A DNA stretch of 64,000 nt from Planctomycetota bacterium (GTDB lineage Bacteria > Planctomycetota > UBA1135 > GCA-002748355), in NCBI GenBank assembly GCA_002748355.1, contig PDSF01000046.1, positions 204 to 64,203 of the forward strand. The letters run 5' to 3'. The translations under genes and the position numbers were made by a program. Of the stretch, positions 29,481-54,705 are shown in pieces. Within the stretch, counting starts at the first letter, position 1; every line of letters begins with the position of its first letter. The notes beneath the pieces were generated by a model. The model did not search any database and was not told where the DNA came from. It saw only the letters and a program-made list of their open reading frames with translations.

Positions 29481-32400
29481 ATGAGCCACCGAAGAAGCGG
29501 TACCATGCCAGAGCCCCTCAGCCTCCCCGATGACACACCGGAGGAATGCATCGCCATCGTCGGCATCGGACTGCGAGTTCCGGATGCCCGAAGCGCTGAG
29601 TCCTTCTGGCAGAACCTGGTCCGGGGCCACGAGTCACTCAGGCAGTTCAGCGAAGAAGAGCTCACCCAAGCCGGGGTAAAAGCAACAGAACTAGGAGATC
29701 CCCGCTACGTCCGTGCGGGCATGGTCCTCGACGGCTTCGACGAGTTTGACGCGGAATTCTTCGGACTCGGCCCGAAGGACGCCGCCATCATGGACCCCCA
29801 GCACCGCCAATTTTTATCTTGCTGCTGGGAAGCCATCGAAGACGCGGGGCACCCACCCTCGCGATTCCACGGAGAAATCGGAGTATTCGCCGGCTGCGGC
29901 ATGAGCTCCTACTTCATTTTCAATGTCCTCTCGCACAAGGAACTGCTTAACTCCGTCGGGCTCTTCCTGCTCCGGCACACGGGTAATGACAAAGATTTCC
30001 TTGCCACCCGCGCCAGCTACCAGTTCGACCTAAAAGGGCCCGCTATCAGCATCCAAACCGCTTGCTCAACCTCGCTGGTCGCGGTGCACATGGGGGCCCA
30101 AAGCCTCCTCGCCGGGGAGTGCGACATGGCGCTGGCGGGAGGCTGCACGATCGATATTCCCCACGGTCGAGGCTATCTCAGCAAAGAAGGAGAAATCCTC
30201 TCGCCCGACGGGCATTGTCGAGCTTTCGACGCTTCTTCTGCCGGCACGGTCTTCGGCAGCGGTAGCGCAGTCGTAGTATTGCGTCGCCTCGACGATGCTA
30301 TGCGGGACGGCGACCACATCTATGCCGTTCTGCATGGATCATCTGTCAACAATGATGGCTCGGGCAAGGTCGGCTATTTGGCCCCCAGCGTCGACGGACA
30401 AGCGGCTGCGATCGCCGAAGCCATCTCAATCTCAGGCCTGAACGCCTCCCAAATCGGCTACGTGGAATGCCACGGAACCGGCACCACAATCGGGGATCCC
30501 ATCGAGGTGGCAGCGCTCACCCAGGCGTTTCGCGAGTCCAGCAAGGGCATAGGTAACTGCCGCATCGGCTCGGTAAAAACCAATATCGGCCACCTCGACA
30601 CTGCGGCAGGAGGCGTGGGGCTCATCAAAGCTGCTTTATGCCTGAAACGTGGGGCAATACCTCCAAGCCTCCATTTCGAACGCCCCAATCCCAAGCTCGA
30701 AATAGAGTCCAGCCCCTTCGTCGTGGCGAAGGAGCTCACCGAGTGGCCCAGAGGCCCAGAGCCCCGCTTTGCTGGAGTAAATAGTCTCGGCGTAGGCGGT
30801 ACCAATGCCTTCGCTGTGCTCGGGGAGCCCCCCGTGAGCGAAGCACAAGCCCCTGCTTCTCCTGGCCCCCATGCCATTTGCCTCTCCGCCCGTAACGACG
30901 CCGCTCTTGATGCAGCCTGCAGTCGCCTTGCCTCCCACTTACAGGCCCACCCCGAACAGGCGTTAGAGGATATCGCCTTCACCCTGCTTCATGGCCGGCA
31001 CGCCTTCGATCGTCGACGCAGCTTCGCTTGCCGAGATCGCGCAGATGCGATCCAAGTCCTTGAAACTCGTGATCCGATCAGGATCGCAACCCGCAACCGA
31101 AACTCAAATCGCGAAAACCCGATCTTCCTCCTTCCCGGCGGCGGGTCGCAATACCCGGCGATGGGACGCGGCCTCTACGACACCGAGCCGATCTACCGCC
31201 AGCACATCGACAAGGGGCGTAAACTCCTTCGAGAGGAACACGGTATCGACCTGGACCCCCTGCTGTTTCCAAACACAGACGGTTTCGCCAAAGCCGAATC
31301 CGAGTTCCTCCGCCCATCGCTGCAACTCCCTGCCCTGTTCTTGGCCGAATACGCCTTAGCCCAACTTTGGGGTGAACGTGGGGTCCAACCGGCCGCCCTA
31401 CTTGGGCACAGCATGGGCGAGAACACAGCAGCATGTATCGCCGGAGTCATAGACTTCCAAGCTGCACTGGGTCTCGTGGTCCTGAGAGGCCGACTATTTG
31501 AAGAGATTCCTCCCGGAGGGATGGCGAGCGTCTCTCTCGACGAGCCCAGCCTGCTCAAACTCTTGCCCGACACTCTCGATCTCGCCGTCGTAAACGGCCC
31601 CCAAAACTGCGTGGTCTCGGGCGAGACCAACGCCTTACAGGCATTTATCTCAAAACTTGAAGGGCGTGATATCGAGGTTCGGCGCATCCGCATCTCGATT
31701 GCAGCACACTCCCGGATGCTAGATCCGATCCTGGACGAGTTCGGCGCCTACCTACAGAAACAGGAGCTCCGAAAACCGACAATCCCGTTGCTTTCAAATC
31801 TAACGGGTACCTGGCTCAGCGATGAGGAAGCGACATCTCCTGATTACTGGGTCCATCATCTTCGGGAAACGGTCCTCTTCGGCAGCTGCGTCACAACGGC
31901 TCTTGAAGGAAACGAGTCGCCCTTGCTCGAAGTCGGCCCCGGACGCAGCCTCAGCTCGCTCTCGCGCATCAACCCGGCCTTCGGCGGCCGCCGTGATGCC
32001 ATAGCCACCTTCCGACACCCCGATGAGAAGACTCCAGACGACATTCATTTCCTAAACGCATTCGCCCGGCTATGGGCCAATGGCTTGGCTGTCGACGAGG
32101 CGCGCCTGGTCCCAACAGAGAATCGTCGGCGGGTGTCCTTGCCAACATACGCTTTTCAGGAGCAGCGTTACTGGATCGAAGCCCTCGAAACCCAAGCGAA
32201 CAGGGAACAAGAGATCTCCATCGAGCGCATTGAGCGTATCGAGGAATGGCCTCTCGTACCAAAATGGCAGGCTTCTTCTCTGGCTGGGAGCAGCAATCAA
32301 AACCAAAGATGGCTGGTCCTCGCTGACAAATCTGGCGTGGGCGAGGCATTAGCGCATCACATTCGTCAATCGGGGGCGGATCTAATCCTCGCTCGTGAGG

Positions 32401-35400
32401 GTGATCGCAATACCCGTCAGACGGACGACGAGTTCCTCATCGCCCCCGAAATCGCGACCGAAGGCTTCGACGAGCTTTTCTCCGTGCTCGCGAACGAGGA
32501 CCGCCTCCCCGATCGAATCGTTCTGTGCTGGCCTATCACTCACTCAAACGATATTCGACCTGGGTCCAGCGCCCTACACCACCACAAGGAGCGAGGCTTC
32601 CTTGCAGTTTTAGAATTGGCGCGAGCACTGGCCAGTGTAGGCAGTGATGGCAAGGTTCACATCACGGTTGCCAGCAATGGGATGCAATCCGTATGCGGGG
32701 AGAAACTCAACTCCCCCGAGAAGGCCTTGCTCTTAGGCGCTTGCCGAGTCTTGCCACGAGAATTGCCCAACGTGCACTGCAGCACGATCGACGTACAGCT
32801 CCGCGAAAAGAAGAGTTTCCTCCTTGGACATGTCAGCTTCTCGCATCGCTCCATCCAAGCTGCCGCTACTGCCATCTATCGGGAAGCCTGCTCCTATCCC
32901 GAGGCGACTTGTACCGTAGCTGCCGTTCGCGGTGACAAGCGTTATGTCGAAGCTCTTGAGCCCACAAAGTGGGACGCATTCCCCGCACGTAATCAGCCCT
33001 ATCTCAGACCCGGAGGCCTGTACCTCCTAACAGGAGGGCTGGGCGGCCTCGGGCTTCTTGCCGCCGAGGAACTCGCAAGCCAGGAAAAGGTCAAGCTATT
33101 ACTCGTCAGCCGAAGCCATCTCCCCGACCGCAGCGAGTGGCCAGGGTGGTTACGTCAGCCGGACAGCGCCGACGAAACGACAAGCATTATTCGTCGCATC
33201 CTGGCGATAGAGGAGAGTGGCTCGGAAGTCATCGTAGAGCAAGCCGATATCACAGATGTAGAAGCCATGCGAAGCTTGCTCCACAAAGGGGAGAAAGCTC
33301 ACGGACCATTACGCGGAATCCTGCACACAGCCGGCGTTCTGGATGAAGGCCCGATCCCCACGCGGGATGCGGGGAAAATTGATCGAGTCCTAGCCGCCAA
33401 GGTCTCGGGCACTCTCGTCCTAGACCAGTTTCTCGAAGAATCCCCCAAGAAGGATGACCTCGATTTCTTCTTGCTGTATTCATCGACTAGCGCACGAATC
33501 GGCCCTCCGGGCCAGATCGACTACGCAGCAGCAAACGCTTTCCTGGACGCCTTTGCGACCAGTGCTCGCTCCAAATATCCCATCTGCTCAGTGGCCTGGG
33601 GCATCTGGAACGAAACAGGGATGGCCGCCCGATCGCTTGTTGAAAACAAAGCAGAGCCATCTCCCGTCCAAGCCAAACAGAAAGCGCAGCATGCCCCCTT
33701 CATCGAGTACTCTCAAAATGCTAACGGTTCCGGTTTTGTCATGGCGGAGCTGGACGACGAGCGCGACTGGATCCTCGATGAGCACCGACTACGCTCGGGA
33801 CGATCGATCCTTCCTGGATCTGGCTTCGTCGACCTGGCTCTTGGCGCCGCGCGTGAACTCGGACATGACGGCAAGGTCACGCTAAAAGACCTCGTTTTCC
33901 TCCGCCCTCTCTTCGCCGATCACCGCCCCCTTTCGCTCCGCTTCATGTTTACTCCCAGCATGTCTGGGTTACGGCTGGATATCGAAAGCAAGGTCGAGCT
34001 TCCAGATGGCCAAAGCGGTTGGCTTCGCCACGCACAAGCCACTCTCGTGCCCGACTCAGAAGAGCTAGCTCCTGCGGCATTGGACATAAGCGATCTCAAG
34101 CATCGCTTTCCCGACCGCAAAAAAAGCAAGAAGGGAGAAGCCATCCCCGTGGACCAAGCCGATCGATTGCGCTTTGGGGCCCGCTGGGAATGCCTCCGAG
34201 AGATATCCTTCACCTCAGATGAGGCTCTCGCCCTCCTGGAGTTATCACCCAGCTTTACTTCCGACCTGGAGCTGAGCCGCGCTCATGCTGCCATGCTCGA
34301 CATGGCGACCGGCTACGCCTTGCGCCTGGATCAAGGCTTTGGTGAGGACGGCGGGCTCTGGGTTCCGCTTACCTACGAATCTCTCACTCTCCACCATTCC
34401 CTACCGGCTCGCTTCCGAAGCCACGTAAGAAAACAGGGGCAAGCAGGGGCAGAGAACTCGGAACTGGCTCGTTTCGACATCGATCTATTCACGCCGGATG
34501 GCACGCTGCTCTGCGAAATCCGCGGCTACACGATGCGAAAGGTTGTGGTCACGGAGTTCCAGCTCGCCAATACGAAGACCCCTTCTGCTCGCGACCTTCG
34601 ATTACAGGCTTCGGGGCAAACAACCAAGAGTTCAAGCCCGGGCACCGCGAGCAAGCTCCACGAACATCTGCGCTTCGGCATCCGTCCTGAAGAAGGACAG
34701 CGCTGCATCAGTGAACTCATTAGGAAACAACTGCCCCCCCAAGTCGTTCTCAGCTCAATCTCATTACCGAGCCTCGCCAAACAGCTCGATCTCACCTCCG
34801 CAGACGCTGACAACGGCGAAACCCGCTTTTCTCGGCCCGTGCTCAGCAGTGACTTCGAGGAACCTGCCGACGACGTCGAACGGACACTACGGGACTACTG
34901 GGAGGAACTCCTGGGAATCGAAGGCATCGGCGTCGAGGACAACTTCTTCGATCTCGGCGGACACTCCCTAATCGCGGTCCGTTTGTTTGCCCGCATACGC
35001 CAAGCCTTCGGCGTGGATTTTCCGATTTCGGTCCTATTCGAAGCGCCCTCGATCCGTTCCTGCGCAGCTCTATTGCGAAAGCGTGCCACTCAGCCAGTCA
35101 ACGAGGATGCACAGCCCAGCGCGACTCAAGTGCGGCATGTCGTCCCGATGAGTAAGAGGATACAGAACGGCTCGCGCCCCCTGTTCCTTGCTGCGGGGAT
35201 GTTTGGGAACATCCTTAACCTGCGCCACCTAGCGGCTCTTCTAAGCAAAGACCGTCAAATCTTTGGCCTACAGGCCCAAGGCCTGTTTGGCGATTTGCCT
35301 CCACACGAGTCCTTCGAAGAAGCGGCGAGGGAGCATCTCAAAGAGATCCGAGCCCTACAAGCAACAGGCCCCTACCTCATCGGCGGCTTTTCCGGTGGCG

Positions 35401-35966
35401 GCCTGGTGGCATACGAAATGGCACAACAGCTCCTGGCCAGCGGTGAAGAGCTTGGAGCCTTGGTCATGCTGGACACCCCGCTTCCAATTCGGCCACAGCT
35501 GTGCCGCCGAGACAAGGTCCAGATTCACCTGCAACGCCTCAAGCAAGACAAGCACCGCTATTTCCTAGAGTGGCTTCGCAACCGCACACGTTGGGAGCTT
35601 GCGAAAATGGCCAAGGTCTTCCGCTCCGACAGCCGCTCCGAAAACGAAAGTAGCTACCATTCGGCCGCCATCGAAGCAGCTTTTCGGCGATGCCTTGAAC
35701 GGTACGAGATTCAGAAGATCGACATCCCAATACACCTCTTCCGCCCTCCGCTCGACCTCGCCCATCCCATAGGGCCGAACCGCTTCGCCAACGCCGCTCG
35801 CGAAATCGTCATTTCCGACAATGGTTGGTCGGAGTACTCTCCCGATGTCCATGTAATCGAGGTGCCCGGAGACCACGACTCCATGGTGCTTGACCCCAAT
35901 GTCAGAGTGCTGGCAGGGCACCTCCGGAAGCTTCTGCAGCGCGCTGATCAGGCCCATTATGAGTGA
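29481..35966 (+). CDS. Type I polyketide synthase, single module: KS-AT-KR(structural+catalytic)-DH-carrier-TE
   Basis: KS: TACSTS Cys codon at 30063, ECHGTGT His at 30471, NIGHLD His at 30591. AT: GGGSQ and GHSMGE, with the Ser codon at 31410. KR: YLLTGGLGGLGL at ~33021 and YAAANAFLDAF with Tyr at 33522, preceded by a ~240-aa pseudo-KR region. DH after KR: LDEHRLRSGRSILPGSGF with His at 33783, and HAAMLDMATG with Asp at 34309. Carrier: NFFDLGGHSLIAV with Ser at 34965. TE: GGFSGGG with Ser at 35391 and GDHDS with His at 35873. No loading domain precedes the KS. The start could instead be the ATG at 29505. Confidence 0.95.
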   Translation: MSHRRSGTMPEPLSLPDDTPEECIAIVGIGLRVPDARSAESFWQNLVRGHESLRQFSEEELTQAGVKATELGDPRYVRAGMVLDGFDEFDAEFFGLGPKDAAIMDPQHRQFLSCCWEAIEDAGHPPSRFHGEIGVFAGCGMSSYFIFNVLSHKELLNSVGLFLLRHTGNDKDFLATRASYQFDLKGPAISIQTACSTSLVAVHMGAQSLLAGECDMALAGGCTIDIPHGRGYLSKEGEILSPDGHCRAFDASSAGTVFGSGSAVVVLRRLDDAMRDGDHIYAVLHGSSVNNDGSGKVGYLAPSVDGQAAAIAEAISISGLNASQIGYVECHGTGTTIGDPIEVAALTQAFRESSKGIGNCRIGSVKTNIGHLDTAAGGVGLIKAALCLKRGAIPPSLHFERPNPKLEIESSPFVVAKELTEWPRGPEPRFAGVNSLGVGGTNAFAVLGEPPVSEAQAPASPGPHAICLSARNDAALDAACSRLASHLQAHPEQALEDIAFTLLHGRHAFDRRRSFACRDRADAIQVLETRDPIRIATRNRNSNRENPIFLLPGGGSQYPAMGRGLYDTEPIYRQHIDKGRKLLREEHGIDLDPLLFPNTDGFAKAESEFLRPSLQLPALFLAEYALAQLWGERGVQPAALLGHSMGENTAACIAGVIDFQAALGLVVLRGRLFEEIPPGGMASVSLDEPSLLKLLPDTLDLAVVNGPQNCVVSGETNALQAFISKLEGRDIEVRRIRISIAAHSRMLDPILDEFGAYLQKQELRKPTIPLLSNLTGTWLSDEEATSPDYWVHHLRETVLFGSCVTTALEGNESPLLEVGPGRSLSSLSRINPAFGGRRDAIATFRHPDEKTPDDIHFLNAFARLWANGLAVDEARLVPTENRRRVSLPTYAFQEQRYWIEALETQANREQEISIERIERIEEWPLVPKWQASSLAGSSNQNQRWLVLADKSGVGEALAHHIRQSGADLILAREGDRNTRQTDDEFLIAPEIATEGFDELFSVLANEDRLPDRIVLCWPITHSNDIRPGSSALHHHKERGFLAVLELARALASVGSDGKVHITVASNGMQSVCGEKLNSPEKALLLGACRVLPRELPNVHCSTIDVQLREKKSFLLGHVSFSHRSIQAAATAIYREACSYPEATCTVAAVRGDKRYVEALEPTKWDAFPARNQPYLRPGGLYLLTGGLGGLGLLAAEELASQEKVKLLLVSRSHLPDRSEWPGWLRQPDSADETTSIIRRILAIEESGSEVIVEQADITDVEAMRSLLHKGEKAHGPLRGILHTAGVLDEGPIPTRDAGKIDRVLAAKVSGTLVLDQFLEESPKKDDLDFFLLYSSTSARIGPPGQIDYAAANAFLDAFATSARSKYPICSVAWGIWNETGMAARSLVENKAEPSPVQAKQKAQHAPFIEYSQNANGSGFVMAELDDERDWILDEHRLRSGRSILPGSGFVDLALGAARELGHDGKVTLKDLVFLRPLFADHRPLSLRFMFTPSMSGLRLDIESKVELPDGQSGWLRHAQATLVPDSEELAPAALDISDLKHRFPDRKKSKKGEAIPVDQADRLRFGARWECLREISFTSDEALALLELSPSFTSDLELSRAHAAMLDMATGYALRLDQGFGEDGGLWVPLTYESLTLHHSLPARFRSHVRKQGQAGAENSELARFDIDLFTPDGTLLCEIRGYTMRKVVVTEFQLANTKTPSARDLRLQASGQTTKSSSPGTASKLHEHLRFGIRPEEGQRCISELIRKQLPPQVVLSSISLPSLAKQLDLTSADADNGETRFSRPVLSSDFEEPADDVERTLRDYWEELLGIEGIGVEDNFFDLGGHSLIAVRLFARIRQAFGVDFPISVLFEAPSIRSCAALLRKRATQPVNEDAQPSATQVRHVVPMSKRIQNGSRPLFLAAGMFGNILNLRHLAALLSKDRQIFGLQAQGLFGDLPPHESFEEAAREHLKEIRALQATGPYLIGGFSGGGLVAYEMAQQLLASGEELGALVMLDTPLPIRPQLCRRDKVQIHLQRLKQDKHRYFLEWLRNRTRWELAKMAKVFRSDSRSENESSYHSAAIEAAFRRCLERYEIQKIDIPIHLFRPPLDLAHPIGPNRFANAAREIVISDNGWSEYSPDVHVIEVPGDHDSMVLDPNVRVLAGHLRKLLQRADQAHYE

Positions 35967-36993
35967 AACAGCCATCGTGGTCATTGGCCGCAATGAAGGA
36001 CAGCGCCTCATTGCCTGCTTTGACTCTCTCCGTGGTCGAGAGCCCTACCTGGTCTACGTAGATTCCGGTTCCTCTGATGGAAGCATCGACGCCGCACTGA
36101 GCCGCGGCATCGATGTCATCACTCTGGATACCGATTCGCCCTTCACTGCCGCTCGAGCACGAAATTCCGGCTGGCGGCGCTCTGTAGAGCGCCATCCTGA
36201 ACTCAAATATGTCCAGTTTGTCGACGGGGATTGCTGCGTAGACCCTGACTGGATTTCCTTTGCCCACAACCACCTGAAAAATCACCCTAAGCTCGCTGCC
36301 GTTGCGGGCAGACGCAGAGAACGCCACCCAGAAGCAAGTCGCTACAACCTACTCTGCGACATGGAGTGGGACACTCCCATCGGAGAAGCGGCAGCCGTCG
36401 GGGGTGATGCCATGTTTCGCATCGCAGCTCTTCAGGAAGCTGATGGGTTTAATGACCAGCTGATCTGCGGAGAAGAGCCTGAACTCTGCTTCCGATTGAG
36501 ACAACGTGGCTGGAGCATGGAGCGACTCGACCACGAAATGACCCTGCACGATGCCGATATGCATCGATTTGGTCAGTGGTGGAATCGATCCAAACGTGGC
36601 GGCTGGGCTTTCGCAGAAGGAGCCGCAATGTATGGCGACAGCGAAGAGCGCTACAATGTCCAGCAATACCGAAGCATCTGGATCTGGGCAGCCCTTCTAC
36701 CGTCCACCCTTTTGATTCTGGGAGGGCTCGTCACAGGCTTCGTGTTCCAGAGCTTCTTCGCTGCAGCCATCGGAGCAGTGCTAAGCCCCTTACTCCTTAT
36801 GCCACTGGCCTTGTGGCTCAACTCTTGGCGAGTTGCCCGGAATCGCGTCCAACGTCACGGCGACTCGTGGCGAAGCGCAAAGACCTATGCCTTCTGGGCG
36901 CTGCTCTGGAAGTACCCTGCGTTCCTAGGACTGCTGTCTTTTGCCCAGCACAGGCGTAGCAATCGCAAAGCTTCACTGATCGAGTACAAGTAA
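35959..36993 (+). CDS. Family 2 glycosyltransferase with C-terminal TM helices
   Basis: The ORF was trimmed to the ATG at 35959, which overlaps the PKS stop (ATGAGTGA). It has the GT-A pattern AIVVIGRNEG, YVDSGSSDGS, DGD (DxD) and GEEPEL. Two or three hydrophobic helices lie near the C-terminus. Confidence 0.8.
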   Translation: MSETAIVVIGRNEGQRLIACFDSLRGREPYLVYVDSGSSDGSIDAALSRGIDVITLDTDSPFTAARARNSGWRRSVERHPELKYVQFVDGDCCVDPDWISFAHNHLKNHPKLAAVAGRRRERHPEASRYNLLCDMEWDTPIGEAAAVGGDAMFRIAALQEADGFNDQLICGEEPELCFRLRQRGWSMERLDHEMTLHDADMHRFGQWWNRSKRGGWAFAEGAAMYGDSEERYNVQQYRSIWIWAALLPSTLLILGGLVTGFVFQSFFAAAIGAVLSPLLLMPLALWLNSWRVARNRVQRHGDSWRSAKTYAFWALLWKYPAFLGLLSFAQHRRSNRKASLIEYK

Positions 36994-37000
36994 CCTAGCC

Positions 37001-38104
37001 ATGCATACAGCAAATAACGCATCTAGGGCTAGCTCCGCAATCGCTCCGGAGATGCGTGAGGTCTTGGTCATCATCGTCAACTATCGTTCGGCCACCTTAA
37101 CCTTGCCCTCACTGGAATCGGTCAATGAGGAACGAAGACTACTGGCAACGGAATCCCCGCCAATCAATCTTCGAGCCGTAGTGGTCGAGAACGACTCGGG
37201 AGATGAAGAAGAGCTACGCACTGGTATCGACGACCTGAATTACGGCGACTGGGTCACCCTCATCGCCTCTGACCGCAATGGCGGCTATGCCGATGGCAAT
37301 AATCTGGGAATCGCTCACGGGTTTGCGAGCCAAGCGGCACCAGACTTCATTCACTTCCTGAATCCGGACACCAAGATCCGCCCCGGAGCGATACAGGAGC
37401 TAATCAGATTTCTGGACGAGCACCCAAAGGCTGGACTCGTAGGGAGCGCCTTCTTCAATGGTGACGGTAGCCCTTGGCCGATGGCGTTTCGCTTTCCTAC
37501 TATATGGAGTGAAATCGAGTCGGGTATCGGCTGGGGCCTCATCTCAAAGCTTATGCGGCGCTGGATCGTCGCCCAGGAGATGCCCCCACATCCAGTAAAA
37601 ACCGACTGGGGCCCTGGGGCCTCGATTATCGTGCGCCGAGCTGTCATCGATCGACTCGGCGGTATAGATGCCGGATACTTTCTTTATTTTGAAGAAACCG
37701 ATTACTGCCTTGCCGCCCAAAAAGCGGGATTCGAATTTTGGCGAGTCCCCGCCAGCGAGGTCGTTCATTACTCCGGGGCAAGCACCGGTGTCACAACGAA
37801 GCGCGATCGCCCTATAAGGCTACCAAACTACTGGTTCGAATCGCGGCGACGCTACTTTTTAAAGAACCACGGATTATTCTACGCAATCGCCTGTGACCTT
37901 TGCGCCGTGGCTTCTCGGCTCATAGGTATGGTAAAGGCAACGATCCTGGGAAGAAGACGCAGCTTGGTGCCCTTTTACATAAGGGATCTACTGCGGCACA
38001 GCCCTCTCCTACGACGGAACCGTAAGTGCGAACCCGGCATGCGATATAGCCGCGAGCATCCCAGCGAATATGAGCAGCGGGCATGCGGAAGGGGCGTGAC
38101 CTAA
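37001..38104 (+). CDS. Family 2 glycosyltransferase (WbbL/rhamnosyltransferase-like layout)
   Basis: VLVIIVNYRS, VVVENDSGD, NGGYADGNN, FLNPDT and YFEETDYC motifs. It starts 7 nt after the preceding GT2. Confidence 0.8.
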   Translation: MHTANNASRASSAIAPEMREVLVIIVNYRSATLTLPSLESVNEERRLLATESPPINLRAVVVENDSGDEEELRTGIDDLNYGDWVTLIASDRNGGYADGNNLGIAHGFASQAAPDFIHFLNPDTKIRPGAIQELIRFLDEHPKAGLVGSAFFNGDGSPWPMAFRFPTIWSEIESGIGWGLISKLMRRWIVAQEMPPHPVKTDWGPGASIIVRRAVIDRLGGIDAGYFLYFEETDYCLAAQKAGFEFWRVPASEVVHYSGASTGVTTKRDRPIRLPNYWFESRRRYFLKNHGLFYAIACDLCAVASRLIGMVKATILGRRRSLVPFYIRDLLRHSPLLRRNRKCEPGMRYSREHPSEYEQRACGRGVT

Positions 38105-41959: not shown

Positions 41960-42093
41960 CCTTATCCCCTTTTCCAGAGCTATCACCCCAGTGCTATCGA
42001 CGGATCAGCCTCAGCACCTGAGCCGACAAGAAGCATCAAAGATTAGGGCCTTGTCAGGTTTCCCCACACGCCCGCCCGTATACCGTGGAGCGC

Positions 42094-42288: not shown

Positions 42289-42307
42289 GACCGGCCCATC
42301 CGGAGAG

Positions 42308-42323
42308 GGGGGCGCGCGCCCCC
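42308..42323. terminator. GC palindrome between convergent genes
   Basis: gggggcgcgcgccccc is a perfect 16-nt palindrome. It lies between the small ORF stop (42288) and the dehydrogenase stop (42328). Confidence 0.35.
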
Positions 42324-42327
42324 GGGC

Positions 42328-43395: not shown

Positions 43396-43450
43396 CGTGT
43401 TCTGCTCCGTCTCATCAGGGAGGAAACTAAGTATGTCGAAACGCTAAGCC

Positions 43451-45433: not shown

Positions 45434-45789
45434 GGCAGTGGTTCCAGCAGCGCGGAGTCGGGCAAACAGCGCAGGCGCATAGAAAACTCGCCGCGCAAGC
45501 TCTTCAACGCCCCGCGAGAGACTGGCAAGAGGATCAACAGCCCGAAAGACGGAGCCAGTCTAGCGCAGAGTCATGCTCCATCCCAAGGACGAGGCGCCTG
45601 CCGCCAGCCTGGCTCGACCCGAGATCTGGAACGACAACCTCAAAAAATCAGCGGAGAAGCCAGCTCGAAGCAACGTGATTCACAGGACAAGGCTTGGCCC
45701 CAGTGCCCATGTCTGCTTTCGTCCAAGCTATCTATCTCCCCTGGCACCCACCCCGCCGGCGCACCCGGCCTCTCAAGGAGTCACTCCAG

Positions 45790-46932: not shown

Positions 46933-46933
46933 G

Positions 46934-48010
46934 ATGAAGATTATCAATCATCTATCCTGGGGCATCCTGGCCCTGATCGTCCTCGCCCTCCTCGCCCGCA
47001 TGATGGTGGTCAAGGTCGAGATTGGAACGACCGGTGTCCTCACCAAGGAATGGGGAGGCGGTCTGGTGCAACAGGATTTCGGTCCTGGATTTCACTGGGA
47101 CTTTGGCCCGCTGCATACATGGGCTCTCTTCGACACGACGGTGCAAAGCCTGCACTTCAACAGTAATAACTCAAAGGGGCGATCACGTCACGATAACGGC
47201 GAGGGCCCCCTCCAGGTCAAGTCGGCAGAAGGCTCTACCGTTACCCTTGATGTCACGGTCAAGTTCAGGGTCGAACCTGGTAAGACCTGGCAGCTTCGTC
47301 GCGACATGGGCGTCGGCGACAGCTACAAGGTCAAGGTGCGAAACGAAGCTATCGATGCCCTCCGACCGGTCTTCGGCCGGATGGACAACGAGGAGTTCTA
47401 TGAGGTCCAATCACGCGAGCTACGAACCCTTGAGGCCGAGAAGATCCTCACCGAACGCTTAAAGAAGCTCCATGTCTCGCTTATCGCCATCCTTATCCGC
47501 GATGTTTCCTTCGATGAAGCCTACGAAAAGCGCATTCGGGATAAAACCGAACTCCAACAGCAAGAGCTGCTCAACAAATCGGAAACCGATCTCCGTAAGT
47601 TCGAGGGCGAAACCAACGAGGTGAAGGCGCAGACCACGGCAATGGTCAACGTGATCAACCAAAACCTCGAGCGCCAACGTCGCGAGCTCACCGCTGATAA
47701 CTTCAAGACGATCGCGAAGATCCGCGCCGACGCCGAGAGATACGCATTGGAGCAGCAGGCCGACGCCAACCTCTACGCGACCGAGAAGAAGGCAAAAGGG
47801 CAGCTCCTTATCGAAAACGCCAAGGCCGAGGGCCAGCGCATGCGTCAAAGTGCACTGCAGGGCAGCGGCGCCTCCAACCTGATCGCCCTCGAGGCGGCCC
47901 GCAACCTCCACATTGGAACCCTGGAGGTCTCCACCCTGCAGACCAACTTCCTCAACCTGATGGAGCTCGCCAAGCGCCTCGGAGCACAAAGCCAGCCGCG
48001 CAAGGACTAG
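46934..48010 (+). CDS. SPFH/Band-7 domain membrane protein (HflK/HflC-like), second of pair
   Basis: The ATG at 46934 lies 1 nt after the upstream stop. It has an N-terminal TM helix (GILALIVLALLA), the pattern VKVEIGTTGVL...GPGFHW typical of HflC/K, and a coiled-coil tail. Confidence 0.75.
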   Translation: MKIINHLSWGILALIVLALLARMMVVKVEIGTTGVLTKEWGGGLVQQDFGPGFHWDFGPLHTWALFDTTVQSLHFNSNNSKGRSRHDNGEGPLQVKSAEGSTVTLDVTVKFRVEPGKTWQLRRDMGVGDSYKVKVRNEAIDALRPVFGRMDNEEFYEVQSRELRTLEAEKILTERLKKLHVSLIAILIRDVSFDEAYEKRIRDKTELQQQELLNKSETDLRKFEGETNEVKAQTTAMVNVINQNLERQRRELTADNFKTIAKIRADAERYALEQQADANLYATEKKAKGQLLIENAKAEGQRMRQSALQGSGASNLIALEAARNLHIGTLEVSTLQTNFLNLMELAKRLGAQSQPRKD

Positions 48011-48203: not shown

Positions 48204-51200
48204 ATGCCTCGACAGTCTTTCCTTCTCCTAGGACAAGAGTCACTCCTTGTTCGCTGTGGCTTAGCCCTCCTCGAACGGGGACACGAGATCGTGGGGATTG
48301 TCGCCCCCGAAGGCCCCGGGGCGTCATTCGCACGGGAATACAAGCTCGCGCATTATTCGGAGATCCCCGAGCTAGAGCCCGGCAGCTATGACTGGATGCT
48401 CTCCATTACTTGGCTGCAAATCATCAAAGAGCAGCATTTGGCTATCCCGCGTCGAGGAGCCATCAACTTCCACGATGGACCGCTTCCGCGGCACGCGGGA
48501 CTCCTGGCGCCGACATGGGCCATCCTGCAGGGCGAAACCGAGCACGCCATTTGCTGGCACCAGATGGAGCCGCAAGTAGACGCAGGCGCCATCCATATTG
48601 AACGCCGGTTCGAAATCGTCGATACCGACACGACACTGACCCTGAATGCGAAGTGCTTCGAGCACGGTTTCGACGCCTTCGAGCAGCTCCTTTCCGATAT
48701 CGAGTCGGAGAGCCTCAGCTCGCAGCCACAGGCAGCTGAGCCCCGACAACTGCACCAGCGCTGGGATCGGCCACCTGCAGCAGGCCAAATCGACTGGAGC
48801 CAGAGCGCTGTCGAATGCGAACGGCGCTTCCGAGCCCTGGACTTCGGCCAGGCAGCCAACGACTTTGGACGTGCTTGGTTCCGGATCGGCGAGCGCGTGA
48901 TTCAGCCGTTGCACATGGAGCTGGTCGCAGGATCGAGTTCCGGGACAGCAGGTGAGATCCTACTCATAGAGGACGCCTGCATGGTCGTCGCATGCGGCAG
49001 CGGCGCGATCCGGCTCAGTGGATTCGAAAGCCCCGAAGGCAAAGCACTCGCAGCCAACAAAGACGGCCCATACCTGACCCTGAAGGCCGGAGACAAGCTA
49101 AAGGGACCCTCGACCGAGGAGGCCTTCCGACTCGAAGAGCTCGCCAAAAAACTCGCCAAGCACGAACCCTTCTGGCGCAGCAAACTCTCCGGCATCGAAC
49201 CCCTGACAGCCCCCTGGCTGCCCCATCAAGAAAACCCTGCCCAGGAGCACCAGCTGCCCGGGAAAAGGAGCCCCGAAGCTTGGATCGCAGCGCTAAGTAT
49301 CAGCCTAGGTCGATTGGCTTCCCGTCGCTCCTTCCACTGCGGACTCGAAATCGTCAGCACAAATGACCAAGCGGGGCTGCTATCAAAGCTCGCCCCTTTC
49401 GCGGTCCATTGGAGCCCCGAGCAGAGCTGCAAGGATCATGTATCGCGAATAACGGCCGAACTCGAATCCCTCTCGAACAAGGGGAGCTTCCTCCGCAACC
49501 TATTCTCTCGCCACTCAGAACTAAGGGCCCTCGGCGCACAGAATCAGTCCTTCTTGCCGGTTCGCATCGGTTCCACTGCTGGCATCGGTTCCGCTGCCAT
49601 CTATCTCAACTTGGAGGAAGACGGTGGTGCCAGACTGCACTGCGCCGAAGCTGTCGCCAGCGAAGCAGAGTTCAAAAGCCTAACAAGTCTCTGCGAGCGG
49701 TATCTCGAAACCATAGCCACAAGCCCAGACACACCGCTTCTGGAGGTTCCTCTCCTGGACGAAGAGCAAGTTCGGCAGATGCACGAACAAGCACTCCAGA
49801 GCTTCGCCCCGATCGAAGGGCCACGCGAGATCGTCACCCAGTTCAAACACACAGCAAGCCTGCACCCTGAGCGCGTGGCATTACGTTGCCACTACGGGGA
49901 GCTGAGTTTTGGCGAACTCGATCAAGAGATAGAAAAGCTGGCGAAAGCCATTGCCGGCCTCGGAATCGGCTCCGGGGAACTCGTCGCAGTGCACCTCCCG
50001 CGTTCGCTTGAGATGCTCATCGCAGTGCATGCCATTCAGCGCGCCGGGGCCGCCTACGTACCTCTCGACCCCGAGTATCCACGCGAACGCCTCGCCTTCA
50101 TGCTGAGCAACTCCAAGAGCAAGCTAGTCCTAACGACCAGCAGTAGGCGACGAGACCTATCAGCGGGGGAGGATGTCCAGTTCCTTGAGCTAGACAGGGA
50201 CCAAAAGAGGATTCTCTCTCTGGCATCAACAAGCGACCTGCCCCCTCCCCCGGCACCAGAAGACCTCGCCTACGTGATCTACACCTCGGGATCGACAGGC
50301 CGCCCTAAGGGTGTCGAAATCGAGCATCGCTCGGTTGCAAACTTCTTTGCCGGGATGGACGAGATTATCGGCCCCCCAAAAAACGACGAAAACAAGGTCT
50401 GGCTCGCAGTCACGAGCCTCTCCTTCGACATTTCGGTATTGGAGCTTTTCTGGACGTTAACCCGAGGCTTCACCGTCATCTTGTATGGCGCTACCGAGAT
50501 CACCGCCGCCGCGCGAACAGTAAGCATGAGCTTGGCCTACTTCGCCAGCGACTCCGGCGAGAACCCCGGCGACCGCTACCGCCTGTTACGCGAAGGCGCT
50601 CGCTTTGCAGATGCGCACGGCTTCGAAGCCGTCTGGACCCCGGAGCGACACTTCCACGAGTTCGGAGGACTTTATCCAAACCCCTCGGTAACCAGCGCAG
50701 CGCTGGCAACGTGGACCGAACGAGTGCAGCTGCGCGCAGGCAGCGTAGTAACCGGGCTGCACCATCCCATCCGCATTGCGGAAGAGTGGTCGGTCATCGA
50801 CAACATCTCCGGTGGCAGAGTGGGTGTAGCCTTGGCTTCTGGTTGGCACCCGAACGATTTTGTCCTCGCGCCCCATCGCTACGAGGGGCGGAAGGAGCGG
50901 ATGCTGGAAGATCTCCAGACGATCCGCCGCCTCTGGGCTAAGGAAGAAGTCATCTTCGAAAACCCCATCGAAGAGAAATTCTCCGTGAGGATCCTCCCAG
51001 AACCTCTGAGCCCAGAGCTGCCCATTTGGATTACTGCAGCCGGCAACCCCGAAACCTTCCGGATTGCCGGGGAGCAAGGCTGCAACCTGCTCACCCACCT
51101 ACTCGGCCAAAACGTAGAAGAGCTCGCAAGCAAAGTCCGGATCTACCGCGAAGCGTATTCGAACTCTCCCTACGCCATCGAACGCGGCGGCGAGGGCAAG

Positions 51201-52904
51201 GTAACCCTCTTACTCCACACCTACGTCTGCGGCGATGAGCAGGAAGCCCTGCAGAAAGCCCGCGAGCCGATGCAGCGTTATCTCGGCACCGCTGCTGACC
51301 TGATCAAGAAGCACGTGAGTTCGTGGTCTGCGGTCAGAACCTCGCTGCAAGCTAGCGAGGACGACGAAGAACTGGATCTCGATAAGCTGCCCCCCGAAGA
51401 CGTGCAAGCCCTGCTTGACTACGCCTTCGAACGCTACGCCCAGGGAAGCGCCCTCTTCGGCTCCCCGGACAGCTGCCTAGCGATGGTGGAGCGCCTTCGC
51501 AAAATCGGCGTAGACGAGATTGCCTGCCTCATCGACTTCGGCGTCCCCACCCAAGAGGCTCTCGACGCCCTGCCCCACCTCGACCAACTGCGGCAAAAGA
51601 TCAAACTCAGCACAGCAGAGCCTCAGCTCCGAGAGAGCATCGAAGAGCTCATCGAGCAACACGGCGTGACGCACTTCCAGTGCACCCCATCGATGGCCAC
51701 CATGCTCGCCGCCGACGAGACGACCTGGCCGGCGCTCGCCAAACTTGAGTGCATGCTTGTGGGCGGCGAAGCCGTGAGCCCCGAGCTTGCCCGGCAGCTA
51801 GTCTCCCGACTTGACGGAGCGAAGTTGCTCGATGTCTACGGCCCAACCGAAACGACAATCTGGTCGTCCTCAGCCCCGCTGAACAAGGACTTGAAGCTCG
51901 TCCCCATTGGGCGCCCCATCCGAAACAACAGCTTTTGGATTCTCGACCCTTTGTCCCTTGAGAGAGGGCAGCTTGCCCCCATGCCCAAGGGCGTAGTCGG
52001 GGAGCTATGGATTGGTGGCGAGGGCTTAGCCCGTGGCTATCTCGGGCAACCTGAGCTAACGCAGGAGCGATTCTGGCCTGACCGACTATCCAAGGCCCAG
52101 CCTGAAGCGCCCGAGCGGCTCTATCGAACTGGCGACCTCGCACGCCAGCTACCCGACGGCCAATACAGCTATGTGGGCCGGCTAGACCAACAAGTGAAGA
52201 TCCGCGGCTACCGCGTCGAGATCGGAGAAATCGAAAGCGCCCTCAATGAAAACGAAGCCGTGGGGCTAGCGGCGGTCATCGTCGAGGAACTTGGCCTTGC
52301 CGATATCCGGCTGGTGGCCTTCGTCAGCCCCAGAAGTGGCGAGGCCCCTCAGGCCGAGCACCTGCGCGAGCACCTGCGTCGCCGCCTACCCGAATACATG
52401 GTGCCCAACGATTTCGTCGTCTTGCCAGAGCTGCCCCAGACCCCGAACGGCAAAGTGGATCGAAGGCGGCTCCAAGAAGAGCGCGCACAGTGGCACTCCC
52501 CCTCCGACTCCAAGACTGAAAGAGCCACTCTCCCACAAATGGCCGCCGACCATGCAGCCAGTACCGGAGGAGCGTCTCACTCCGCGGAGGACCTGCGCAA
52601 AATGCTGCAAGCCCTCTGGAGCGAGCTGCTGGGTAAAGCCGTCACGGATCTCGAAGCCAACTTCTTCGACCTCGGTGGACACTCGCTCCTGACCATCAAA
52701 GTCCAGAGCCGACTGAGCAAGGAGATCGGTCGGCGCGTCCCCCTTGTCGACCTCTTCCGCTTCCCCACAATCCACGGACTTACGGAACATCTCTGCGCCT
52801 TGCACTCATCTAGCCCAAGTGCCACTGACACCGGAGAAACAGAGAAGTCTCGCGGCGCCAAACGTGCGGCGAAACGACGTGCACGCCGCCGCCGGAAGAA
52901 CTGA
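48204..52904 (+). CDS. Stand-alone NRPS-like protein: formyltransferase - degenerate C-like region - adenylation domain interrupted by luciferase-like monooxygenase - PCP
   Basis: F domain: INFHDGPLPRHAG (N/H, His codon at 48471) and QVDAGAI (Asp), plus a Fmt C-terminal-like barrel. A C-domain-like segment of ~240 aa (FWRSKLSG...) has no HHxxxDG. A domain: YVPLDPEYP, YTSGSTGRPKG (~50279) and FDIS (~50424). A ~360-aa LLM insert follows (~50525-51610; FADAHGFEAVWTPERHF, GRVGVALASGWHPNDF). The A domain resumes with YGPTETT (~51836), GELWIGGEGLARGY, YRTGDLAR, KIRGYRVEIGEIE and PNGKVDR. PCP: NFFDLGGHSLL with Ser at 52683. The C-terminus is an Arg/Lys-rich tail, with no C, TE or R domain after the PCP. 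Confidence 0.9.
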   Translation: MPRQSFLLLGQESLLVRCGLALLERGHEIVGIVAPEGPGASFAREYKLAHYSEIPELEPGSYDWMLSITWLQIIKEQHLAIPRRGAINFHDGPLPRHAGLLAPTWAILQGETEHAICWHQMEPQVDAGAIHIERRFEIVDTDTTLTLNAKCFEHGFDAFEQLLSDIESESLSSQPQAAEPRQLHQRWDRPPAAGQIDWSQSAVECERRFRALDFGQAANDFGRAWFRIGERVIQPLHMELVAGSSSGTAGEILLIEDACMVVACGSGAIRLSGFESPEGKALAANKDGPYLTLKAGDKLKGPSTEEAFRLEELAKKLAKHEPFWRSKLSGIEPLTAPWLPHQENPAQEHQLPGKRSPEAWIAALSISLGRLASRRSFHCGLEIVSTNDQAGLLSKLAPFAVHWSPEQSCKDHVSRITAELESLSNKGSFLRNLFSRHSELRALGAQNQSFLPVRIGSTAGIGSAAIYLNLEEDGGARLHCAEAVASEAEFKSLTSLCERYLETIATSPDTPLLEVPLLDEEQVRQMHEQALQSFAPIEGPREIVTQFKHTASLHPERVALRCHYGELSFGELDQEIEKLAKAIAGLGIGSGELVAVHLPRSLEMLIAVHAIQRAGAAYVPLDPEYPRERLAFMLSNSKSKLVLTTSSRRRDLSAGEDVQFLELDRDQKRILSLASTSDLPPPPAPEDLAYVIYTSGSTGRPKGVEIEHRSVANFFAGMDEIIGPPKNDENKVWLAVTSLSFDISVLELFWTLTRGFTVILYGATEITAAARTVSMSLAYFASDSGENPGDRYRLLREGARFADAHGFEAVWTPERHFHEFGGLYPNPSVTSAALATWTERVQLRAGSVVTGLHHPIRIAEEWSVIDNISGGRVGVALASGWHPNDFVLAPHRYEGRKERMLEDLQTIRRLWAKEEVIFENPIEEKFSVRILPEPLSPELPIWITAAGNPETFRIAGEQGCNLLTHLLGQNVEELASKVRIYREAYSNSPYAIERGGEGKVTLLLHTYVCGDEQEALQKAREPMQRYLGTAADLIKKHVSSWSAVRTSLQASEDDEELDLDKLPPEDVQALLDYAFERYAQGSALFGSPDSCLAMVERLRKIGVDEIACLIDFGVPTQEALDALPHLDQLRQKIKLSTAEPQLRESIEELIEQHGVTHFQCTPSMATMLAADETTWPALAKLECMLVGGEAVSPELARQLVSRLDGAKLLDVYGPTETTIWSSSAPLNKDLKLVPIGRPIRNNSFWILDPLSLERGQLAPMPKGVVGELWIGGEGLARGYLGQPELTQERFWPDRLSKAQPEAPERLYRTGDLARQLPDGQYSYVGRLDQQVKIRGYRVEIGEIESALNENEAVGLAAVIVEELGLADIRLVAFVSPRSGEAPQAEHLREHLRRRLPEYMVPNDFVVLPELPQTPNGKVDRRRLQEERAQWHSPSDSKTERATLPQMAADHAASTGGASHSAEDLRKMLQALWSELLGKAVTDLEANFFDLGGHSLLTIKVQSRLSKEIGRRVPLVDLFRFPTIHGLTEHLCALHSSSPSATDTGETEKSRGAKRAAKRRARRRRKN

Positions 52905-53078: not shown

Positions 53079-53672
53079 ATGAAGCCTCCAGGACTCTTTT
53101 CCCTGCTCCGTGAAGACCTACGGGCCCATCACGGGGCTTGGCTCAGACCGGGCTTCCAAGCCTTGGCCGTCTATCGATTCGGGTTCTGGAAGCAGCGCAT
53201 TCGCTGGCGCCTCCTGCGCATCCCCTTCAGCTTGCTCCACCATTGCGGAAGCATCTTCTGCCGCAATTTCTACGGTATCGAGCTGCCCTGCACCGTGAAG
53301 ATCGGAAGGCGCCTAGTCCTCGAACACCAGCACGGGATCACGATCCACGGCAACGTGGTGATTGGCGATGATTGCGTGATCCGGCAAGGAGTCACCATCG
53401 GCAACCGCCATCTCAACGACCCCTTCGGCGCCCCAGTGCTCGGCAACCACGTCAACATCGGAGCCGGAGCCAAGGTCCTGGGCCGAATCCATCTGGGGGA
53501 CCACGTCAATGTCGGGGCGAACGCTGTCGTTCTCTCCTCGGTCCCAGCTCACACAACCGTTGCCGGAATCCCAGCCAAACCCGTCAAGCGGCGCAAAGAG
53601 GCCGAGGCCACAAGCCCGAACGGCAAAACCGAGGCTCCCGTCGCCGAACCTAGCTCCGAAGCGCTGCCGTAA
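53079..53672 (+). CDS. Hexapeptide-repeat acetyltransferase (short CysE/EpsC-like serine O-acetyltransferase family)
   Basis: Left-handed beta-helix repeats: [36 protein letters not shown] and [14 protein letters not shown]. The N-terminus (AVYRFGFW) is typical of this family. Confidence 0.8.
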
Positions 53673-54522
53673 GCGTGTTCTTCATCAGCATCGCGATCGT
53701 CATCGGGCCCACCCCCCCTGGCACCGGAGTGATTGCTGACGCGACCTCACTGACCCCGGCGAACTCGCAATCCCCGACCAGGCGATAGCCACTCTGGCGC
53801 GAGCTGTCATCGACACGATTGACCCCAACGTCGATCACCACGGCGCCCGGCTTGACCATGTCCGCGGTTACGAACTTGGCGCGCCCGATCGCGGCAACCA
53901 ACACATCGGCCTCGCGCGTGACGGCGGCAAGATCCTGGGTTCGCGAATGACAAAGAGTAACTGTCGCATTCTCCCGCAGTAGCAGCATGGCAGCCGGTAA
54001 GCCTACGATGCGGCTACGCCCCAGCACTACGGCACGCGCCCCGCTAAGCCGGCAATCGATGCGCCTCAGCATTTCCAGCACACCCGCTGGCGTGCAGGGC
54101 GCGAAACACGCATTTCCGTCCTTCAGTCCAAGCTGACCGAGATTGGCTGGGTGGAAGCCGTCCACATCTTTGGCCGGGGGAATCGCATCAATAACCCTGC
54201 GCTCGTCGATGTGCCCAGGAAGAGGCAACTGGACCAGGATGCCGTGCACCGCCGTATCCGCTGCCAGCTCACCGATCAAAGCCAGAAGCTGCTCTTCGCT
54301 CGTCTCGGCAGGGAGTTCGTGATGGAAAGAGGCAATGCCATCGCGCTCGCACGCCTTGCGCTTCGCCCGAACATAGGAATGCGAAGCCGGATCCTCTCCA
54401 ACGAGCAGCGTCGCCAGTCCCGGCTGAATCCCCTTCTCCTGGTACAGCCGTTCCGCCTCAACACGAATTTCTGCGTGCAGGGCCGCAGCGATCTCCTTGC
54501 CATCAATACGTCGTGCAGTCAT
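53650..54522 (-). CDS. folD: Bifunctional methylenetetrahydrofolate dehydrogenase / methenyl-THF cyclohydrolase
   Basis: The ORF was trimmed to the ATG at 54522 ([13 protein letters not shown]). It carries [29 protein letters not shown] and [10 protein letters not shown] motifs. Its 3' end overlaps the convergent acetyltransferase gene by 23 nt. Confidence 0.88.
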
Positions 54523-54705
54523 CCCTCCATTGTGACGAGGTGACCCAGCGCCTCCAGCCTGATCTCGCCATACTCTGCCCTCAGCCGAACGCCGCTTCGC
54601 GCTTTCGCCCACCCCAACGCTCGGCTAGGCTCGCTCCTGAATATCGAATCAATAAACCAGGCCCATATTCACTGAAACAGGCCCCAGCCCAAACGGAGCA
54701 GGCAC

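Follow-up and report, generated by a model that had tools for sequence, protein, structure and literature searches.

We analyzed a 64,000-nt stretch of a Planctomycetota metagenome-assembled genome (MAG; assembly GCA_002748355.1, contig PDSF01000046.1, positions 204 to 64,203, hereafter the window) and focused on a nonribosomal peptide synthetase (NRPS) gene at 48204–52904 on its forward strand. The gene encodes a protein in which a formyltransferase (F) domain, half of a condensation (C) domain, an adenylation (A) domain interrupted by a luciferase-like monooxygenase (LLM) and a peptidyl carrier protein (PCP) are followed by a basic tail. As judged by comparison with its homologs, this is a real four-part enzyme and an ordinary member of a widespread, common family. 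Most related loci also carry a type I polyketide synthase (PKS), and an ortholog of that PKS lies in the same window. We propose, with a probability of about 0.6 for the mechanism as a whole, that the NRPS protein is the initiation (loading) subunit of a two-protein NRPS–PKS assembly line.

Domain architecture of the NRPS protein

Domains were assigned by Pfam and NCBIfam profile searches, and the invariance of residues was judged in an 18-sequence homolog alignment (41–66% identity). The single unbroken frame of 1566 codons encodes a 1566-aa protein with the following parts, all on the forward strand and in this order.

48204..49073 (+): F domain, residues 1–290, with an Fmt/ArnA-like catalytic subdomain and an Fmt C-terminal-like subdomain (Pfam Formyl_trans_N 57–155, Formyl_trans_C 192–285)
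49101..49823 (+): condensation-domain remnant (C-terminal lobe), residues ~300–540, from Condensation matches of homologs and an AlphaFold2 model
49836..50513 (+): adenylation N-terminal part (A1–A4), residues ~545–770 (Pfam AMP-binding 547–764, profile positions 1–240)
50526..51593 (+): flavin mononucleotide (FMN)-dependent LLM insert, residues 775–1130 (TIGR04020; Pfam Bac_luciferase 783–1105)
51621..52523 (+): adenylation C-terminal part (A5–A10), residues ~1140–1440 (TIGR01733 1142–1358; AMP-binding ~1142–1358, remainder of the profile; AMP-binding_C 1342–1417)
52596..52808 (+): PCP, residues ~1465–1535 (Pfam PP-binding 1468–1530; attachment serine S1494)
52821..52901 (+): basic C-terminal tail (GAKRAAKRRARRRRKN) with the conserved motif RAxxRRxxxxRRR, which may dock on the acidic N-terminus of the PKS

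The original prediction, made from the DNA letters without database searches, had described a single protein combining these parts, and the profile searches and the unbroken frame bore this out. Formyl_trans_N/C, AMP-binding, Bac_luciferase/TIGR04020 and PP-binding all matched the window protein, while Condensation matched in homologs only. The Arg/Lys-rich tail that had been read after the PCP proved real and conserved in the family alignment. The PCP serine S1494 (GGHS), the A-domain core motifs and many LLM residues were invariant. The Pfam Thioesterase profile had no match in the NRPS protein; a few homologs do have a thioesterase (TE).

In the F domain, N88/H90/D126, inside the motif NFHDGPLP, were invariant and aligned with the catalytic N-x-H...D triad of ArnA and Fmt, so that the catalytic residues are intact, as had been predicted. 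The best matches in the PDB were Fmt (7e-15), ArnA (3e-14) and GDP-perosamine formyltransferase, all three with E values between 1e-13 and 1e-15. The F domain of LgrA formylates a PCP-bound amino acid with formyl-tetrahydrofolate (formyl-THF) as the donor, and action of the CongA F domain on PCP-tethered glycine has been proposed by analogy (PMC4504003). The same analogy, together with the presence of the same F and half-C domains at the start of multimodular NRPSs, supports the prediction that the F domain of the window protein transfers a formyl group from formyl-THF to PCP-bound glycine.

The segment between the F and A domains (residues 300–540) gave no Pfam match in the window protein, even at permissive thresholds. 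In homologs, the same segment matched positions 188–455 of the 456-position Condensation profile, in one case (P0019) at 44.7 bits, over the gathering score. An AlphaFold2 model of residues 286–549, built with 32 homologs, had a pLDDT of 88.9 and a pTM of 0.85. When this model was compared with the PDB using Foldseek, all 50 of the listed matches were condensation-family domains of NRPSs (Txo1, LgrA, DhbF, EntF and the RzmA starter C domain among them), with E values of ~2e-10 and TM scores of ~0.6 on the query and ~0.4 on isolated C domains. Because the homolog matches cover the C-terminal part of the profile and the Foldseek list consists of C domains throughout, residues ~300–540 are identified, by profile and by predicted fold, as the C-terminal lobe of a C domain, and the lobe with HHxxxDG is absent. 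The original prediction of a C-terminal half without HHxxxDG was thus sound. This half-C is probably a structural adaptor that joins F to A.

FDISVLE (A4, residues 741–747) and YGPTE (A5, residues 1212–1216) flank the LLM insert, and residues 775–1130 scored 479.1 bits against TIGR04020 (MupA/Atu3671 family FMN-dependent LLM; cut-off 244.45), in line with the predicted placement between A4 and A5 as in MtaG/MelG. To read the specificity code across both A halves, we anchored the positions by motif to GrsA numbering. The window protein has the code DILQLGVIWK. Among 50 parsable family members, DILQMGMIWK occurred in 31 and DILQLGMIWK in 5, and the rest were close variants (overall DILQ[ML]GM[IV]WK). 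Compared with glycine-type codes, which we take to be DILQLGLIWK and its relatives, the window code is predicted to be of the glycine type, and the glycine preference first read from three positions (D, I, L) now extends to the full code on the same assumed references. The high score of LgrA as the top PDB match of the insert-free A domain (579 bits) was considered as support for glycine and dropped: it adds up the matches to two A domains (272 + 305 bits) and so says nothing on glycine, and LgrA module 2 differs at the code positions.

The solved structure closest to the LLM insert was PDB 6KET, named PuwE (E 6.6e-104 over 358 residues). The PuwE monooxygenase domain has been assigned to the 2-hydroxy group of the carrier-bound 3-amino-2-hydroxy acyl chain of puwainaphycin (PMC4219810). 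For MtaG/MelG, which have the order C-A-MOX-A-T-TE (MOX, monooxygenase; T, carrier domain), alpha-carbon hydroxylation of the carrier-bound N-acyl glycine has been proposed, and the hydroxylated N-acyl glycine decays to an amide and an alpha-keto acid (PMC11411415).

Distribution of the family across bacterial phyla

Among the candidates scored, the full protein had homologs in 742 database clusters at E<=1e-20. The best 120 of these 742 homologs were 1496–1826 aa long and all had Formyl_trans_N, AMP-binding, AMP-binding_C, Bac_luciferase and PP-binding; most also had Formyl_trans_C. The named ones carry only annotations such as 'MupA/Atu3671 family LLM' or 'natural product biosynthesis LLM protein', and the database entry identical to the window protein is annotated as hypothetical. 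In a library of 1.84 billion representatives, 1126 representative clusters matched the head consisting of F and half-C (residues 1–545) at E<=1e-30. When one genome was scanned for each species, at least 600 stretches fitted the pattern, with no more than two in any gene, of which 594 were confirmed. The matches listed came from Alpha-, Beta- and Gammaproteobacteria, Myxococcota, Planctomycetota, Gemmatimonadota, Acidobacteriota, Actinomycetota, Chloroflexota, Cyanobacteria and Rhodothermota, and the family spans at least 10 phyla.

The rarity implied by the original prediction was not upheld: the head alone occurs in those 1126 clusters, an LLM-interrupted A domain followed by a PCP was found in all of the best 120 full-length homologs, and the gene belongs to a cassette known from roseobacters since 2007. 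Its novelty had been made to depend on the architecture not being a common, functionally assigned family; the family turned out to be common, and it is not functionally assigned. We found no paper on the F/half-C/A(LLM)/PCP architecture or on the product of the cassette described below in the openly accessible literature, and there, too, no characterized enzyme uniting an F domain with an A-embedded monooxygenase came to light, as the prediction had held.

Relatives sharing the same head were not all interrupted by an LLM. Three proteins of ~1200 aa (P0133, P0156 and P0239) have the F and half-C head with an uninterrupted A domain, and the head also begins multimodular NRPSs (F-C*-A-PCP-C-A-PCP..., where C* is the half-C), such as P0237 (3233 aa) and P0175 (2477 aa). 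The LLM insert is thus an optional addition. From these comparisons, the F and half-C head is a device of general use for initiation, of which the LLM insert defines one large subtype.

A probable partner PKS in the window and in related loci

To survey possible partners, all window proteins were compared by tblastn with 82 related loci. The most frequently co-occurring window protein was a PKS, found in 68 of the 82 loci and in 57 of them as one long high-scoring segment pair; the next, a family 4 glycosyltransferase (GT4), was found in 14. In the window, this PKS is followed by two family 2 glycosyltransferase (GT2) genes.

29481..35966 (+): probable partner type I PKS, 2161 aa, ketosynthase (KS)–acyltransferase (AT)–ketoreductase (KR)–dehydratase (DH)–acyl carrier protein (ACP)–TE, from Pfam domains, catalytic motifs and orthologs beside the NRPS gene elsewhere
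35959..36993 (+): GT2 directly after the PKS (Pfam Glycos_transf_2), start uncertain (35890 TTG or 35959 ATG), with orthologs in 9 related loci
37001..38104 (+): cassette-type GT2 (Pfam Glycos_transf_2), orthologous to the cassette GT2

The PKS retains C193/H331/H368 of the KS, GHSMGE and IAAH in the AT, the NADPH motif and Y1348 of the KR, H1435 of the DH, S1829 of the ACP and a GFSGG (GxSxG) motif in the TE. Its domain order is unusual in that the KR precedes the DH. The KS-AT region was most similar to that of a PKS solved bound to a peptide synthetase (8XJY/8XJZ, 700 bits). Both GT2 genes (35890–38104) have a lower GC content at third codon positions (GC3), and 35959 is the probable start of the first, which would thus overlap the stop codon of the PKS.

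A full-length ortholog of the PKS (35–48% identity) flanks the NRPS gene in about 60 of the 82 loci. It lies directly downstream in 36 and upstream in about 19, the latter mostly Rhodobacteraceae and usually with a GT2 gene between; the order in Rhodobacteraceae is PKS, GT2, NRPS, phosphopantetheinyl transferase (PPTase). Several further PKS loci have cut contigs. In Sphingomonas and Methylobacterium, a PKS of 2077–2160 aa begins 5 to 35 nt after the NRPS gene, and at L083, the nearest relative on a long contig (NRPS 58% identical), the PKS overlaps the NRPS stop codon. The GT2 encoded at 37001–38104 is 36–48% identical to the cassette GT2 of 18 of the 51 loci with both NRPS and PKS, which adjoins the PKS or the NRPS gene in 14 of these 18. 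In L012 (20276–23554), L010, L050 and L071, the PKS match stops short of the TE and the PKS is followed by an NRPS module of the order C-A-PCP, so the assembly line can gain another amino acid; this module constitutes a cluster (c13) found in 7 loci, and L004 and L020 belong to the same set.

The original prediction described the NRPS protein as lacking any release or condensation partner. This was not borne out, given the PKS at 29481–35966 of the same window, which has a competent KS and a C-terminal TE, the PKS orthologs at the NRPS gene in about 60 loci and the C-terminal tail that marks PKS-partnered members. Together with the GT2 genes, the window genes are classified by orthology as a member of a conserved roseobacter-type hybrid PKS/NRPS cassette with an orphan product.

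The basic tail and the type of receiver

The tail of the window protein has a net charge of +9 and the N-terminus of the window PKS one of −3; in PKS orthologs, the 30 residues before the KS are also acidic (median net charge −3). We therefore sorted the related loci by the neighbor of the NRPS gene and counted Lys and Arg residues (K/R) after the PCP.

PKS in the locus, 57 loci: at least 5 K/R in all 57 (median 8)
PglD/NeuD-like hexapeptide acyltransferase without a PKS, 4 loci: 0–1 K/R
C-A-PCP NRPS modules following, 1 locus (L057): 0 K/R and 9 Asp/Glu (acidic tail)
No partner visible within the flank, 9 loci: 6–11 K/R

A basic tail was thus present in 57/57 loci with a PKS vs 0/4 loci of the PglD type. 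With its net charge of +9, the window protein would by its tail belong to the PKS-docking subtype.

The subtype without a PKS was found in cyanobacteria and Acidobacteria (L021 7773–8474, L041 14515–15201, L056 6346–7703 and 12460–14790, L081 615–1271). Its neighbors are PglD/NeuD-like hexapeptide acyltransferases, a DegT sugar aminotransferase, nucleotidyltransferases, a pyridoxal phosphate (PLP)-dependent decarboxylase and a PylC-like ATP-grasp protein. This context suggests that the PCP donates its unit directly to the amino group of a sugar. That receivers of three types occur (KS, C domain and left-handed beta-helix (LbH) acyltransferase) suggests that the F/half-C/A(LLM)/PCP protein makes a self-contained building block.

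Genes surrounding the NRPS gene

Downstream of the NRPS gene, at a distance of 175 nt, lies one further gene whose membership in the system is uncertain.

53079..53672 (+): hexapeptide-repeat acetyltransferase, CysE/EpsC/WcaB-like (Pfam Hexapep)

Its NCBIfam matches to EpsC, cysE and WcaB were all under the cut-offs, and its orthologs occurred in 4 related loci only, away from the NRPS gene there. It is followed by a convergent folD gene at 53650–54612 on the reverse strand (23-nt 3′ overlap), whose product makes 10-formyl-THF. We considered FolD as a supplier of 10-formyl-THF and rejected it; its proximity is probably due to chance, since none of the 82 related loci has a counterpart.

The genes between the GT2 genes and the NRPS gene are hutH, leuB, a leuD-leuC-like fusion, a gene of unknown function, a short-chain dehydrogenase/reductase (SDR) gene and two SPFH genes. 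With leuB and hutH over the NCBIfam cut-offs and the leuD-leuC-like fusion beside them, these three are housekeeping genes. The aconitase-like, isopropylmalate dehydrogenase-like and ammonia-lyase genes among them had been considered as a pathway to a homo-amino-acid or cinnamate precursor, a possibility that was rejected when they scored as the leuD-leuC-like fusion, leuB and hutH. The two SPFH/Band-7 genes (45694–48010, +) form a tandem just ahead of the NRPS gene, with an overlap of 26 nt between them; they were not found in the related loci. Farther upstream, 18558–22275 (+) holds a block encoding an ABC-2 permease and an ABC ATPase together with a protein of 603 aa that includes a CAAX (Rce1-like) protease domain. 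A scan for promoters and terminators around the NRPS gene gave nothing exceeding chance.

The closest relative of the NRPS protein overall, P0002 at L084, is 66% identical, and L084 shares no upstream synteny with the window. An IS3-type transposase fragment lies downstream of the NRPS gene there (L084 6193–6815). The fragment of an insertion sequence and the absent synteny hint that the NRPS gene may be mobile.

Proposed assembly line and alternative explanations

The NRPS protein has an Fmt-like domain with its triad, an A domain, a PCP with its serine and no functional upstream C domain, as an initiation module does. In the assembly line that we propose, the split A domain would activate glycine and load it onto S1494 of the PCP, and the Fmt/ArnA-like domain would N-formylate the tethered glycine using formyl-THF. 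The embedded FMN-dependent monooxygenase would then hydroxylate the alpha-carbon of the N-formylglycyl thioester, an order of formylation and hydroxylation that is itself part of the proposal, while the half-C would act as a non-catalytic scaffold between F and A. The basic tail would dock on the acidic N-terminus of the PKS (29481–35966), whose KS would accept the starter and extend it with a malonyl-type unit, once or iteratively, with processing by the KR and DH. The TE would free or transfer the chain, probably onto or near a glycan from the adjacent GT2 enzymes. There is precedent for such an F domain in the conglobatin, oxazolomycin and rhizopodin lines, where F-A(Gly)-PCP loaders deliver formylglycine to a KS (PMC4504003).

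Several observations weigh against this scheme. The F domain barely detected that of LgrA in the PDB search (E ~1e-3), but such a distance is not unusual, because the CongA F domain is also just 23% identical to that of LgrA (PMC4504003). On the chemical side, N-formyl-alpha-hydroxyglycine is a hemiaminal and could collapse, and therefore the true starter may differ. The AT has the motif [IV]AAH, as do its orthologs, and not the HAFH/YASH signature for malonyl or methylmalonyl units. The code was read against a GrsA reference fragment that we presume to be correct, its numbering having reproduced all ten published positions. No PPTase was found in the window, where tblastn gave no match better than E 0.09, although a PPTase is present in just 19/51 related loci and is thus not universal in the cassette. 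The PKS also lies 12 kb upstream of the NRPS gene instead of next to it, and the reverse strand of the interval (39250–45433) is taken up by hutH, a 350-aa gene without a family match, leuB and the fused leuD-leuC-like gene.

The sequence identities add to these points. The NRPS of L083 is 58% identical to that of the window and its PKS (14806–21186) only 37%, while the window PKS is closest (46–47%) to PKSs of Phycisphaeraceae, Sterolibacteriaceae and Planctomycetaceae loci. Our expectation that the PKS of L083 would be the closest thus failed, and the NRPS and PKS have no simple shared history; the mismatch suggests partner replacement or separate transfer. Since the PKS of L083 is not the closest, the partner in the window is one that we infer. 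On the other side, the tail of the PKS-docking type supports the PKS at 29481–35966 as the partner despite the 12-kb gap, and we regard it as likely that the two genes work together.

An alternative would keep the same assembly line and change its starter. Here, formylation would merely make the N-acyl substrate for an MtaG-like cleavage, and collapse to formamide and a glyoxylyl thioester would leave a two-carbon oxo-acid as the starter. The decay proposed for hydroxylated N-acyl glycine in MtaG/MelG (PMC11411415) and the half-C, which suggests descent from a C-A(MOX)-PCP module, speak for such a course. In MtaG/MelG, however, the collapse was proposed around TE release and not ahead of transfer to a KS; PuwE, the closest solved LLM, is tied to a hydroxyl retained in the product; and the LLM-less F-C*-A-PCP relatives imply that formylation has a role without hydroxylation. 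We consider this outcome improbable. Slightly less credit still goes to the idea that the enzyme acts alone, with a trans-acting acyltransferase (candidate 53079–53672) moving the N-formyl-(hydroxy)glycyl group from the PCP to a sugar amino or hydroxyl group without any PKS. The PKS-less subtype (L021, L041, L056 and L081) has a PglD/NeuD-like acyltransferase and sugar genes beside it, nine more loci have no PKS within the flank, and in the window the NRPS gene stands apart from the PKS, its neighbors being the LbH transferase gene along with genes for a GT4 and a PIG-L deacetylase. What separates the window from that subtype is the tail, which is absent as a basic element in all four PKS-less members (0–1 K/R) and strongly basic here as in the 57 PKS-associated ones. 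Moreover, the LbH transferase of the window is CysE/EpsC/WcaB-like, not PglD-like, its orthologs are not found beside the NRPS gene elsewhere, and a cassette-type PKS with a GT2 is present in the same window.

The N-terminal domain could also be read as an enzyme of the ArnA, WlaRD or perosamine type that N-formylates sugar nucleotides, joined to a carrier-protein module unrelated to it and acting on an amino sugar of a neighboring polysaccharide pathway. Among solved structures it comes closest to Fmt, ArnA and GDP-perosamine formyltransferase while the LgrA domain is barely seen, and many related loci in Alphaproteobacteria are polysaccharide loci. Yet the same head opens classical multimodular NRPSs and LLM-less loaders, which is the position of an initiation formyltransferase, the fusion is maintained in more than 1000 representative clusters, and the similarly distant CongA domain is likewise proposed to act on PCP-tethered glycine; we regard this reading as very unlikely. 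That the long open reading frame is an assembly or annotation artifact fusing separate genes, a concern raised with the original prediction, or a decaying pseudogene, is effectively refuted. The frame is unbroken with all catalytic motifs intact, the GC content is even across the whole window, and the same one-protein architecture recurs in at least 120 independent homologs (1496–1826 aa) from isolates and MAGs, including all of the best 120; no point in favor was found apart from the origin of the contig in a MAG.

Significance and comparison with known systems

The loading subunit proposed here belongs to one of the most widely distributed orphan NRPS–PKS cassettes, of which the window instance itself is not special. 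The cassette is likely linked to cell-surface glycans and, if so, bears on envelope decoration in many environmental bacteria. More tentatively, and with odds that we would place against it, the protein may be a portable generator of an N-formyl-alpha-hydroxyglycyl (or derived) unit, whose tail sets the receiver: a KS for a basic tail, a C domain for an acidic tail and a PglD-like N-acyltransferase where there is none. The main form, NRPS-PKS-GT2, would then put a short polyketide rich in nitrogen and oxygen on a cell-surface glycan or lipid. If true, this would amount to an undescribed class of envelope modification in more than 1000 lineages of at least 10 phyla.

The conserved cassette of PKS, glycosyltransferase, NRPS and PPTase genes in roseobacters was reportedly described by Martens et al. 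2007. A hybrid PKS/NRPS cassette of this kind was present in 28/57 roseobacter genomes, and its product was called uncharacterized in papers of 2015–2016 (PMC4337385, PMC5014874); the literature searched gave nothing later. The window NRPS is a full-length ortholog (37–40% identity) of those in the Rhodobacteraceae loci of Leisingera (L073), Cypionkella and Phaeobacter, and the PKS and GT2 of the window are orthologous to those of the cassette as well. Locus L073 comes from Leisingera sp. JC11; strain JC1 of the same genus was studied in PMC5014874. The window version differs in being split, with PKS-GT2-GT2 at 29.5–38.1 kb, the NRPS gene at 48.2 kb and housekeeping genes between, and in having no PPTase. 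Its host is a Planctomycetota MAG, and the family as a whole reaches far wider than the roseobacters, to at least 10 phyla.

Among formylglycine loaders, CongA (conglobatin), OzmO (oxazolomycin) and the loader of rhizopodin share with the window protein the N-terminal F domain, a PCP and, by prediction for the window protein, a glycine-specific A domain and delivery of the unit to a PKS KS (PMC4504003). They differ in having no monooxygenase inside the A domain and no reported half-C, a comparison made by description. Their products are oxazoles or N-vinylformamides formed via extra enzymes, for example the CongE/OzmP cyclodehydratase. MtaG/MelG (myxothiazol and melithiazol) have the LLM-split A domain, the glycine substrate (predicted for the window protein) and the proposed alpha-hydroxylation of a carrier-bound N-acyl glycine in common with the window protein. 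They are, however, termination modules that yield a terminal amide and have a working upstream C domain and a cis TE, whereas the window protein is an initiation module that retains just the C-terminal lobe of the C domain, has no cis TE and is predicted to carry formyl as the N-acyl group. Because it lacks a working C domain and a cis TE, the window protein is not a member of the MtaG/MelG type and just uses the same A-MOX-A device.

The F-A-PCP module of LgrA (linear gramicidin) likewise has an N-terminal formyltransferase with the N/H/D triad, but the two F domains are distant, and in LgrA the A domain starts at about residue 209, so that no C remnant stands between F and A. LgrA also lacks an LLM, activates valine, and hands over to a C domain and not to a KS. 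PuwE contains the closest solved LLM, which sits in a PKS/NRPS line and has been assigned alpha-hydroxylation of a carrier-bound acyl chain. Its domain is located between PKS and NRPS modules, next to an aminotransferase and not within an A domain, and acts on a long beta-amino fatty acyl chain. By analogy with these systems, the window protein is predicted to unite the workings of a formylglycine loader of the CongA/OzmO type with the A-MOX-A device of MtaG/MelG.

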